From: Saccostrea echinata
Taxonomy: Eukaryota
Reading direction: 5' to 3'
Length of the DNA: 64,000 nucleotides
Assembly (NCBI RefSeq): GCF_033153115.1
Contig: NW_026889805.1
Span: 19,096,001-19,160,000, forward strand
Shown here: one piece after another, positions 4,880 to 10,871 of the stretch
Position numbering within the stretch: the stretch's first letter is position 1
How the letters are laid out: each line of letters opens with the position of its first letter
Translations under genes and position numbers: made by a program
Notes under the pieces: generated by a model
The model's input: only the letters and a program-made list of their open reading frames with translations
Databases searched by the model: none
Told to the model about the DNA's origin: nothing

Positions 4880-6116
4880 AAAAAAATCAGTAAATCAGGC
4901 AAGACAAGCCTGGTGTCCATCGGTGAAAACAAACACCCCAAACGAAAAAGTGTTTCCATTAAGAAAGCGGCAAATATAGCCAAAGCTTTTAGTACAAGGA
5001 AAGACACCATGTTTTCAAAGGTAAGCTACTCCTTTTGTAACTTTGTTAGAAAGTTCACAAGACCATCTTTTTTGCCATTTTTAACCTTTTTCCACTCATT
5101 TTGTGATGTTACGTCCATTTCACACTTTTCAATTTTTTCTTTTAATTGTGCCTTTGTTAAAGTTTTAATATTTTCTGCATTGTCTCTTTGTTTTTGGGAA
5201 ATTGTAATTGGCTTGGGTCGAAATCTTTTTAAAAGGGAATTTGTGCGTGAAACTTCCTTTGCATAATTATGGAAATTGGCCTCGCATTGCTCTGCATGTG
5301 AGAAGTCGTATGTCCGGGGCCAATCTGTCGCCACACATTCCCTCCAGCTTCTCTGATAATAAGATGTTACTCTCCTTGATGATTGACCTTTGAATTAAAA
5401 ACCATAAACACAATAATTTTTAATATCGAACATACACAGTGCTAGATAAATATATAAAACATGAAGAAAAAAAAATAAATTTAAAAAAAATACGAAAAAC
5501 ACACCTAAACCTGACAACTTCATCCTTAATTCCATGCACATAAGTGTAGTTCCCATTATCATCATCCGACACTCCAAGGATATTTATCATGTACTCGTGA
5601 ATCTATATAGAAAAATATATATTTTATATTGTAGGCAAAAGAACTAGAAGTCGCGACAGGGGCCAAAGTGAAGATGTCCATAAAGGCTCCGTCGGGCACA
5701 AAGTATATCTATGGAGAGGTACGGGATGTTTACAATACAGGTTATTTGACCAATACCACCCCCCCCTTCAAATTCCAAATGTTTGTTTCTTATTTATTAT
5801 TTGTTTTTATTTGTTTTTGTGGATGTATTTGTGCTGTCCCTCTGTTTTGTTTTCAGTTAATACGTCTGTGTTTTATTTTATTTTTATTCCACGTTCTGTT
5901 TTTGTACCTGTGGTTGTTTATCTTTTGTATACACAGGATGAATCAAGTTTTTCCTTCCCACGGGCGAGGTGGATTGGGTGTGACGGGGAGAATAAAAGGA
6001 AAAACTGTGATTATTGGTGTCGTTGCCATTGCCTTGGCTTTAAAGCCAAAACAAAGGCCGCTCTTTCCAGGTTGCAGTGGTTCTGCCCAGCCCATCATGC
6101 ACTAGCATTGCAGTGA
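4880..6116 (+). CDS. Transposon-borne MADS-box-like + PHD/CW-like zinc finger protein; exons 4880-5020, 5635-5718, 5937-6116; possible first exon 4036-4050
   Basis: GT-AG, phase-0 joins give IKKAANIAKAFSTRKDTMFSK|AKELEVATGAKVKMSIKAPSGTKYIYGE|DESS...WIGCD-x7-CDYWCRCHC...WFCPAH. The first part aligns to the SRF/MADS pattern FSKRKxGxxKKAxELSxLTGxxV...SxxGxxYxF. Confidence 0.7.
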
Positions 6117-9100: not shown

Positions 9101-10871
9101 GTACATTTAATAAATTGAAATTGAAATAATTTACCAGCTGATATTATTTTTACACCAGTTTTGCTGCCTGTTAAGAAATATGTCAGGACATTTTGGAAGA
9201 ACGAGAGGGGGGCCACATATTTCCTATTTGCAAGAAAATAAACGGCATCAACAGCCTTCGCCATCTCCAGCTGACTATCCATATTGCCACCAATACCCTC
9301 CAAAAACGACAGAAGGACTTGATTCCTGTTCCTTAACCAGTCTATATCAAAAAAATATCATGAGAAAAAGAGGGGGGATGAATGTTGATTTAAAAAAAAA
9401 ATTGAATTTCATTTATGTATAACATATGTTTTTGTATTATACCGGCGAGTTTAAAGTCCTGTAGGAAGATATCGTTATTGTAGAAATTTCTCTGATCAAA
9501 TGCATCTTTACTAATGGCGGATGAGATCTTCCTACCAATACAGTTGGATATTCTTGAAAGGTCCTCCTCTTTAAAATTACCCCTTTCAATAGCTTTCAAT
9601 ATTTCTTCGCAAGAAATAGATGATGTTGGTTCTGTTTATAAAATCAATTCACATTCATATTAAAATAGGAAACACCATGCAAATTATTTATTTTGAACAA
9701 GAATTTTTCACTTTATACTGAACATATTTTATACCATTTAGTTTTCTTTTTTTATTTTCCATTAAGTTTTTTTCCGCATAGTCGGCGCACCCTTCACATA
9801 CATAAACGGCTCTATCTGACAGGGCTCCGCAACCAAGAAGAGTCTTAATGACATCTTTCCTTATTTTTCTGGTATTTACGCGGTGGATACGGTTACATGA
9901 ATCCTCGTTGTTACTGCAATATTCCTCATGCCTTATGCAGCTACACGAAAGTTTCCGTTTTGGAGGTATTCTCTTAATAATAAATAAATAAATAAATAAG
10001 AAAAATATTATTTATAGAGTATATGGTACTATTACTCAGAAGTAAAAATATGCCACAATATAGGTTTGTGGATTTAAATACGTGTTTTATTCGAGTCAAA
10101 ATTGAAATCAAGAAGATAAAAAATATATATCATAGAATAGTACTCTAGATACAGATAAATCATATAATTATAACAACATCCGTATCGTACATTGGACAAA
10201 ACCTTGTAGGGGGTGGGTGGGGTCAATATTCAACATTTTTCAACGAAATGAAACCATATGTGCATAGAAAAGAAATTAACCAGAAGTGAAAAGAAGACCT
10301 GAATATATAACTTTCATGATTTTTAGTCTCAATTTTCATTTGAGGCACTTCTGGCTTTGAAATATTTAAAACATTTATTAATTAAATTTTGAAAATGTAC
10401 ATGAGGAAAAATTAATTTTTTTCCCCAAAATTTCTCTAATATTTTGGTGTTGGGAAACAAAGTTTACCCCCCCCCCCATCCCCCTTGATGGGAACTTAAT
10501 TAAAAATGATTTTTTATAAATGATACTAAAGCTTACACGAAGTGAGAATGAATCTTATCCTCCCCCTTTCCCAATGAATTAGAAAATGAGGCATTGAAAA
10601 TCTCCTATATAACTATTTTCTAAAAAACATATTCAAACTTTGTATTAAAAAATATTATAGAGTTCCTAATTTAATGTAAATATTATTTTACATGTCTATT
10701 CAGGGAATTGATGATTGCTGGAATTTTGATCAATGATAAAAATCTATTTATTTATAAAATGATTCATAGCATAAGTATAGATATATACAGTATACACAAA
10801 TATTACCGTTTCAATACAATTTATGTACGAACTAATAATTTCCTTTTTTATTGTCTGTATTAGCTTTCCAT
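5026..10871 (-). CDS. Multi-exon putative DDE transposase (~850 aa), Academ/DUF6589- or Transib/RAG1-like, slightly degenerate
   Basis: Exons 10807-10871(?), 9735-9972, 9443-9631, 9135-9341, 8830-8936, 8444-8658, 8247-8321, 8014-8110, 7248-7482, 7092-7161, 6943-7004, 6332-6858, 5505-5602, 5026-5387 with matching splice phases. Motifs: CSCIRH...CEGC, FIDNNQV, IGCDALPY, CPAC..H, PGLGHYEIN, DHHKSWQ, RAGVRRNN, EGGDFVLESFKRNVK. Confidence 0.8.
7545..7995. mobile_element. Short MITE(s) with GGCCCGTAG...CTACGGGCC ends inside a transposase intron
   Basis: Inverted termini at 7545, 7921-7935 and 7983-7995; related ends at 21855-22063 and 55554-55776. Confidence 0.6.
9012..9096. repeat. (TA)n microsatellite in a transposase intron
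   Basis: About 42 TA units. Confidence 0.95.

Follow-up and report, generated by a model that had tools for sequence, protein, structure and literature searches.

The stretch of DNA analysed here, hereafter the window, comprises 64,000 nucleotides of Saccostrea echinata (assembly GCF_033153115.1, contig NW_026889805.1, positions 19,096,001 to 19,160,000 of the forward strand). With a probability of about 0.7 for the explanation as a whole, we conclude that it contains a broken copy of a bivalve cut-and-paste DNA transposon that is distantly related to Academ and carries two genes: a transposase gene and, interleaved with it on the opposite strand, a gene whose predicted product combines a MADS box likely derived from the host's serum response factor (SRF) with a PHD-like finger and is a likely accessory factor. 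The element belongs to an Academ-related lineage that is apparently undescribed. Its notable feature is the MADS-PHD partner gene, rather than the intron count or the CxxC motif of the transposase, both of which had been pointed out in a first-pass annotation of the locus.

The element and its insertion site

The element is 7,438 bp long (window positions 3887-11324) and is bounded by terminal inverted repeats (TIRs) of about 84 bp, which comparison of the inverted arms places at 3887..3970 on the 3' side of the transposase gene, beginning CAGGTTGGG, and at 11241..11324 on its 5' side. Including the target site duplication (TSD), the inverted arms measure 89 nt and are 91% complementary. The element ends start with CAG, and related families end in CAGGTTGGG/CAGGTCCAG. 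The TSD is TTTAA, with identical copies on the forward strand at 3882..3886 and 11325..11329; both the 5-bp TSD and the TIRs proposed earlier were borne out by comparison of the flanks. The insertion splits a forward-strand open reading frame (ORF) resembling that of a long interspersed nuclear element (LINE), of which the upstream part (2972..3886) is presumably endonuclease-like and the downstream part (11330..13218) presumably reverse-transcriptase-like. This frame is continuous across the reconstructed empty site with one TSD copy.

When one element end was searched against the same genome, 40 matches were listed, from which a further 29 loci were retrieved for comparison. An exact 5-bp TSD, variable in sequence and with the consensus TTNAA, was present at 18 of the 20 distinct loci with both ends, which are mostly non-autonomous copies of about 960 bp. 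The closest relative of the element's own family that was found is a 600-bp remnant (L002, G000:C36:2638020-2638233), which is 90% identical to the element's 3' end.

The transposase gene

The transposase is encoded on the minus strand, where all motifs listed in the first-pass annotation are present: CxCxxH...CxxC, DNNQ, GCDALPY, CPAC..H..H, PGLGHYEIN, RAGVRRNN, DFVLE..RNVK, and a basic helical tail. The 14 phase-consistent exons proposed there hold for exons 2-13, which join in phase in one frame and align with full-length homologues, the best of which shares 42% identity over 630 residues with the spliced product. Exon 1 (10807..10871), however, was rejected as coding: the frame opened by its ATG at 10871 already ends at codon 4 and does not continue into that of exon 2. 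The homologous start lies at 9969, where ATA is found here, ATG in two relatives (C14 and C9), and Met in 40 of the 42 aligned homologues. The gene thus has 13 coding exons and at most a non-coding leader, which is all that exon 1 could represent.

Exon 2 (9735..9972) was placed by homologue alignment and carries the ATA start codon (9967-9969) and the CxCxxH...CxxC zinc finger (about 9787-9945). Splicing and homologue alignment define exons 3 (9443..9631), 4 (9135..9341), 6 (8444..8658), and 8 (8014..8110); splicing defines exons 7 (8247..8321) and 11 (6943..7004), and homologue alignment exon 13 (5505..5602). The predicted first catalytic aspartate, D244 in DNNQ (codon 8839-8841), lies in exon 5 (8830..8936) and corresponds to strand E54-63 of a homologue model. 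Exon 9 (7248..7482) holds the predicted second aspartate, D398 (7417-7419), and an optional C2H2 finger (about 7300-7368), assigned by conservation and Pfam. The GxGHxE motif is found in exon 10 (7092..7161), while exon 12 (6332..6858) encodes the helical insertion, RAGVRRNN, and DFVLE with the predicted catalytic glutamate, E642 (6428-6430), again assigned by conservation. Exon 14 (5026..5387), defined by splicing, encodes the helical tail and ends with the stop codon (5026-5028). The 12 introns between the 13 coding exons measure 84-729 nt. Such intron richness had been called unusual for a transposase; it is a trait of a subclade, and relatives range from intronless genes to genes in about 11-12 pieces.

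The transposase copy is broken, its lesions being given as they stand in the assembly. Besides the ATA start, the intron-11 donor (6941-6942) is AT instead of GT, and a frameshift near 5310 in exon 14 causes the spliced frame to stop, with the homologous tail lying in another frame. Furthermore, conserved residues are replaced at four positions (G>A399, P>S368, N>M548, and N>K645).

Catalytic core and predicted fold

Conservation was counted over 91 relatives of at least 600 amino acids. The triad proposed earlier is strongly conserved, with D244 present in 88 and D398 in all 91 of these relatives, and E642 in all 81 non-gap rows. Also near-invariant are H458 of the GxGHxE motif (89/91), H501, R571, and D638. 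The family is large: among representatives at 50% identity, E≤1e-30 was reached by 807 clusters and E≤0.001 by 4,219, with annelid and amphioxus proteins among them.

The fold was read from an AlphaFold2 model of a homologue (P0005; predicted local distance difference test (pLDDT) 91, predicted template modelling score (pTM) 0.91). As the first-pass annotation had implied, a ribonuclease H (RNase H)-like fold is predicted, and integrase and transposase structures were matched. In the model, the first strand holds the first aspartate, the second aspartate follows a strand, and the glutamate belongs to a helix past a large helical insertion. VIA-align gave Z 9.9 for the P element (root-mean-square deviation (rmsd) 5.2 Å, 320 aligned residues) and Z 9.8 for Hermes (7.3 Å, 288 aligned), compared with Z 7.0 for both RAG1 (5.8 Å, 345 aligned) and Transib (5.4 Å, 320 aligned). 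A second structural comparison was similar, with integrases at Z of about 8. Foldseek placed RAG1 first at a non-significant E of 0.013, with no match to this model at E≤0.001. The predicted fold is of the RNase H/DDE type; in it, the GxGH motif, positioned as the C/DxxH motif of hAT and P transposases, precedes the large helical insertion.

The antisense MADS-PHD gene

The second gene, which was absent from the first-pass annotation and was found by comparing element ends, is a three-exon gene on the plus strand that is interleaved with the transposase gene. Exon A (4880..5020) encodes the N-terminal half of an SRF-like MADS box, no start exon having been found; exon B (5635..5718) encodes the remainder of the MADS box, and exon C (5937..6116) a PHD-like finger. 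Exons B and C lie in transposase intron 12, and transposase exons 13 and 14 lie within the first intron of the second gene. All borders of exons A-C are AG/GT and in phase 0, with a K|A junction before exon B as in the host SRF.

When a profile of exon A built from seven members was compared with solved structures, SRF was the best match (E 5e-7), followed by MCM1 (1e-4) and MEF2 (1e-3), and with a profile of exon C (nine members) PHD fingers came first. The window's exon A alone had no Pfam match, and its split exons miss SRF-TF singly; SRF-TF was matched by four of the seven exon-A members. A scan of the genome with Pfam SRF-TF, which is independent of these seeds, gave four matches above the cut-off, which are the host's own genes of SRF and MEF2 type. 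A further 17 matches fell below it, and seven of these, from four families, lie within 3 kb of transposase matches. The host SRF has a phase-0 intron at MKK|AYEL, whereas the host MEF2 has no intron there. A GT donor follows the MADS lysine, at the position of the host SRF intron, in all six elements where the motif was found. It is therefore likely, judging from profiles and gene structure, that the MADS box was taken from the host SRF.

Second-gene exons lie on the opposite strand at 16 of the 21 transposase loci examined in the genome (eight of these 16 were not seeds), and several of the loci carrying the gene were recently mobile. The antisense interleaving recurs in five families (that of the window, C54, C45, C6, and C16a). 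One AcademH control region also contains second-gene fragments, which lie outside its AcademH ends. Moreover, two full-length proteins of Crassostrea virginica (P0072 and P0082), named ALFIN-LIKE 4-like and known as annotated proteins alone, have both domains. They score 29.9 and 29.3 bits with SRF-TF against a cut-off of 26, and 23.6-23.8 bits with PHD, just under the cut-off of 24, their last ligand being His. For their model (pLDDT 67), the Foldseek matches shown were MADS and PHD structures only, with PHD structures at the top and none at E≤0.001. An Atlas search with P0072 gave no usable match, and a metagenome scan returned two short contigs without genomic context. RAG2 was absent among the PHD profile matches of exon C up to E=1, and a RAG2_PHD Pfam score was weak (E 0.05).

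Families, mobility, and basal members of the lineage

Both ends could be located for 15 long copies, which represent 10 families; a roughly equal number of further regions yielded no end pair. All of these copies start with CAG; 13 have an exact 5-bp TSD and two have one mismatch. Recent movement is indicated by copy pairs that are 98.8-99.8% identical and sit at different sites with different TSDs. A 9-bp TSD considered for C45 was rejected: the C45-family copy concerned (L150-L151, G000:C45:5169224-5176098) is inserted into a different small element, to which the 9-bp TSD belongs, and is itself flanked by a 5-bp TSD.

The intronless elements C76 and C7 are basal, with CAGTC ends and 5-bp TSDs, and neither MADS nor PHD was detected in them. 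Their transposases begin with a CRxCG...HP..C motif, a pattern present in 12 of the 91 relatives and, in the consulted part of PMC1131882, given as the N-terminal motifs of RAG1. The corresponding Pfam domain, RAG1_imp_bd, reached E≤0.01 in 10 of 42 long relatives, eight of them over the cut-off. According to the part of PMC4411706 (2015) that was seen, this Chapa finger is not encoded by other known elements. In basal C76 and C1/C7 elements, moreover, the transposase gene is followed on its own strand by another small ORF, distinct from the MADS-PHD gene (L072:2014-2619 (-) and L073:1479-1847 (-)), for which no Pfam or MADS-profile match was found.

In a FastTree phylogeny (99 rows, 558 columns, midpoint-rooted), the MADS-PHD carriers form one clade together with named bivalve proteins (support 0.96), and the Chapa carriers fall outside it. 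As the tree has no outgroup, it shows this grouping but not a sequence of events.

Affinity to Academ and to Transib/RAG1

The first-pass annotation had described the transposase motifs as intermediate between Academ/DUF6589 and Transib/RAG1. The Academ half of this claim is supported as a remote kinship. DUF6589 was matched at E≤0.01 by 22 of 42 long relatives, although its Pfam cut-off was passed by some relatives and failed by most. HHalign of the family against AcademH gave 89.8% (E 1.8e-6, 163 columns) with D..E..N in register, compared with 15% against RAG1L, a single sequence aligned in the N-terminal finger only, and 1% against Kolobok. Within the same genome, the family profile matched 3 of 116 AcademH frames at E<1e-3 but none of 5 RAG1L and 34 Kolobok-type frames; the RAG1L negative is a weak control because RAG1L was one sequence. 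An Atlas model compared with a DUF6589 cluster gave TM 0.67/0.76.

The Transib/RAG1 half is not supported. The CxxC after the second aspartate, which had been taken as a Transib/RAG1 trait, opens a self-contained C2H2 finger that matches ordinary zinc fingers only and was the only Pfam match obtained with the window's single exons. It pairs with its own nearby His, unlike the core zinc site of Transib/RAG1, which uses distant His residues. Of the 69 parsable relatives (22 of the 91 were unparsable), 45 have this finger and 24 do not; its loss extends to an entire supported subclade that keeps the triad. In the VIA-align comparison, moreover, P and Hermes score above RAG1 and Transib. The lineage does have RAG-like traits, but they are others: the 5-bp TSD, the Chapa finger of basal members, and the convergent second gene with its PHD-like finger.

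For comparison, 10 control regions were chosen from 105 DUF6589 matches in the same genome; helicase motifs were found in nine of them, and TSDs of 8-10 bp in the four whose ends were found. The element itself holds no unexplained long frame for a helicase, and XPG had no match in two full-length proteins (P0083 and P0085) or the 42 long relatives. Published TSDs, in the part of PMC10045372 consulted, measure 9-10 bp in AcademH and 3-4 bp in AcademX. With its 5-bp TSD and neither helicase nor XPG, the lineage therefore fits neither AcademH nor AcademX. It does not resemble Kolobok either, as its TSD is a variable 5 bp rather than TTAA and no profile match to PF20700 loci was found.

Related systems also occur elsewhere in this genome. 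It holds an intact RAG1-like frame of 1,011 codons that includes a Chapa finger and is present twice (L180, G000:C5:333805-335655; L181, C8) and many AcademH elements with helicase motifs, TAG, CAT, or CAA ends, and TSDs of 8-10 bp (L136-L147 and L128-L135). Kolobok-type PF20700 frames form long head-to-tail arrays with a repeat unit of ~4.0 kb (G000:C79, C122, C29:10665784-10690905, and C12:25104823-25117943).

Comparison with known systems

AcademH has the closest core by profile, its DN..., GD/CD, H, and D..E..N motifs following one another as they do here, and its copies from this genome likewise carry a second gene on the opposite strand. It differs in its helicase and 8-10-bp TSDs in this genome, whereas the lineage described here has no helicase, a 5-bp TSD, CAG ends, and a MADS-PHD gene; identity is about 12%. 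An AcademH sublineage has a PHD inside the transposase. AcademX shares an Academ-type core, a likeness drawn via DUF6589 and without an AcademX sequence in the comparison, and differs in its XPG nuclease and 3-4-bp TSDs (PMC10045372, in the part consulted), neither of which was seen here.

The P element and Hermes (hAT) are the best fold matches over 290-320 residues with rmsd 5-7 Å, and share the His motif after strand 5, but identity is about 10% and they have no MADS-PHD partner. They have CA(G) ends, and 8-bp TSDs are typical. PIF/Harbinger elements are likewise two-gene elements, in which a transposase is accompanied by a small partner with a DNA-binding domain of transcription-factor type; this domain is Myb/trihelix rather than MADS, the TSD is 3 bp, and the core is unrelated. 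SRF, a type I MADS protein, is the best match of the second gene's N-terminal profile and has the same phase-0 intron. The second gene differs from it in identity (about 30%), in its fusion to a PHD, in being transposon-borne, and in ends without CArG enrichment.

ProtoRAG/TransibSU elements also have two genes in a convergent layout, the second with a PHD finger. They share the 5-bp TSD and a distant DDE fold, and basal relatives in our lineage have the Chapa finger. They differ in having a kelch partner and CAC heptamer-type ends, and their core is not detectably similar by profile. The CAC heptamer/nonamer ends of Transib/RAG1L, whose Transib consensus starts with CAC in the consulted part of PMC1131882, were not found, as all 10 families start with CAG. 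Finally, the N-RAG-TP of Aplysia is described as a mollusc transposon with a RAG1-N-like domain (PMC8355894, seen in part), and resembles our Chapa-bearing relatives by description.

Proposed mechanism and alternative explanations

An intact transposase of this lineage would bind the TIRs, excise the element, and reinsert it with a 5-bp staggered cut at TTNAA-like AT-rich sites, and would also mobilise the ~960-bp non-autonomous copies in trans. The MADS box would dimerise and bind or bend AT-rich DNA, and the PHD would read histone tails, helping to assemble or steer the transpososome. RAG2 and the Myb-like protein of Harbinger have partner roles in the transpososome, and by analogy there are about even odds that the MADS-PHD protein is an accessory transposition factor, binding DNA and chromatin on the transposase's behalf.

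Several observations weigh against the explanation that we favour. The placement of the triad in the homologue model was read as secondary-structure positions and not as residue distances. The similarity to Academ amounts to 12% identity only, and the full-length P0083 has no DUF6589 match. In the shared C-terminal MADS columns, SRF and MEF2 tie in identity (e.g., 13 vs 11, 14 vs 14), so that it is the N-terminal profile and the intron that speak for an origin from SRF. The window's PHD is degenerate, its first CxxC missing (two Cys) and an Arg standing at the conserved His. CArG boxes were rejected as MADS sites in the TIRs, since they were found in 1 of 10 families and at levels often reached by shuffles. 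C76 and C7 have 99%-identical copies without the MADS-PHD gene, and the second gene is therefore not required lineage-wide. This mobility of basal families would also suit the main rival explanation, according to which the MADS-PHD protein acts outside the transpososome, either countering silencing of the element or regulating its transcription, so as to activate or limit transposase expression, with the antisense interleaving adding transcriptional interference. MADS and PHD are both transcription or chromatin domains, and the interleaving in five families points the same way, but CArG boxes are not enriched at the element ends, and we consider this role unlikely. The second gene might also be a piece of SRF that was captured and travels as functionless, passive cargo, which would agree with its degenerate state in this copy and its absence from 5 of the 21 loci. 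This is nevertheless very improbable, as families whose transposases share only about 35-60% identity have retained open exons, splice sites, and MADS/PHD residues, and the annotated C. virginica proteins are intact.

Two further alternatives concern the transposase lineage rather than its partner. It could be a true Academ-Transib/RAG1 intermediate, a relic near the RAG ancestor, which would account for the 5-bp TSD, the Chapa/RAG1-N finger (12/91 relatives by motif, 10/42 by Pfam), the convergent PHD-bearing partner gene, and the first rank of RAG1 in Foldseek, RAG1 being alignable over ~350 residues. Yet the CxxC belongs to an optional C2H2 finger, the profile finds no core match in the one RAG1L sequence, RAG1 and Transib fall behind P and Hermes in Z, the ends are CAG and not CAC, and the partner has a MADS box instead of kelch, with RAG2 missing from the PHD matches; such an intermediate is accordingly quite improbable. 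The family may, on the other hand, already be catalogued in Repbase/Dfam as an Academ subgroup with these traits, for example under the label Academ-2. Genome papers, in the parts seen, carry the labels Academ-1/-2/-H, and a bivalve survey curated 100 'Academ' families by hidden Markov models (PMC10294476, in part), the label 'Academ' not being found in the searched part of its supplements. The consulted parts of PMC10045372 and PMC4411706, however, give only the AcademH and AcademX TSD lengths stated above and place Chapa in no other known elements, and our literature search found no link between MADS and Academ-type elements, which makes this rather unlikely. That search, which had key Academ papers and Repbase/Dfam outside its scope, turned up no account of a lineage like this one or of a comparable element with a MADS gene, and the lineage may therefore already be filed under Academ.

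Other features of the window

Another element lies at 17011-18852, with inverted arms at 17054-17179 and 18659-18784 (85%). Tandem arrays occupy 26857-27708, 38510-38868, and 59146-60013, with periods of about 163, 180, and 156 bp. Open frames on the plus strand at 32960-33775 and 43760-44116 resemble what we take to be host-gene exons with a signal peptide and an EGF-like stretch.

Significance

We tentatively propose, at somewhat less than even odds, that the lineage is an undescribed superfamily-level DDE branch sister to Academ, which arrived independently at a ProtoRAG-like two-gene design when host SRF was captured and fused to a PHD as a partner for the transposase. With the Chapa fingers of its basal members, it would be a candidate, outside Transib/Chapaev, for having donated or received the RAG1 N-terminus. 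A Chapa finger on a non-Transib core would be contrary to the 2015 statement that restricts Chapa to that group. A third TSD length for Academ-like cores opens a way to test whether TSD length is set by the accessory enzyme, and since sister families look intact and recently mobile, assays should be feasible. To our knowledge, animals normally have SRF and MEF2 as their sole MADS genes. An SRF that was captured, fused to a PHD, and kept through deep divergence would be a rare case of domestication from host to transposon, and bivalve genomes would hold extra MADS genes concealed by names such as 'ALFIN-LIKE 4-like'. The lineage may offer a separate case in which to ask why PHD partners are recruited by transposases, which is the question underlying the origin of RAG2.

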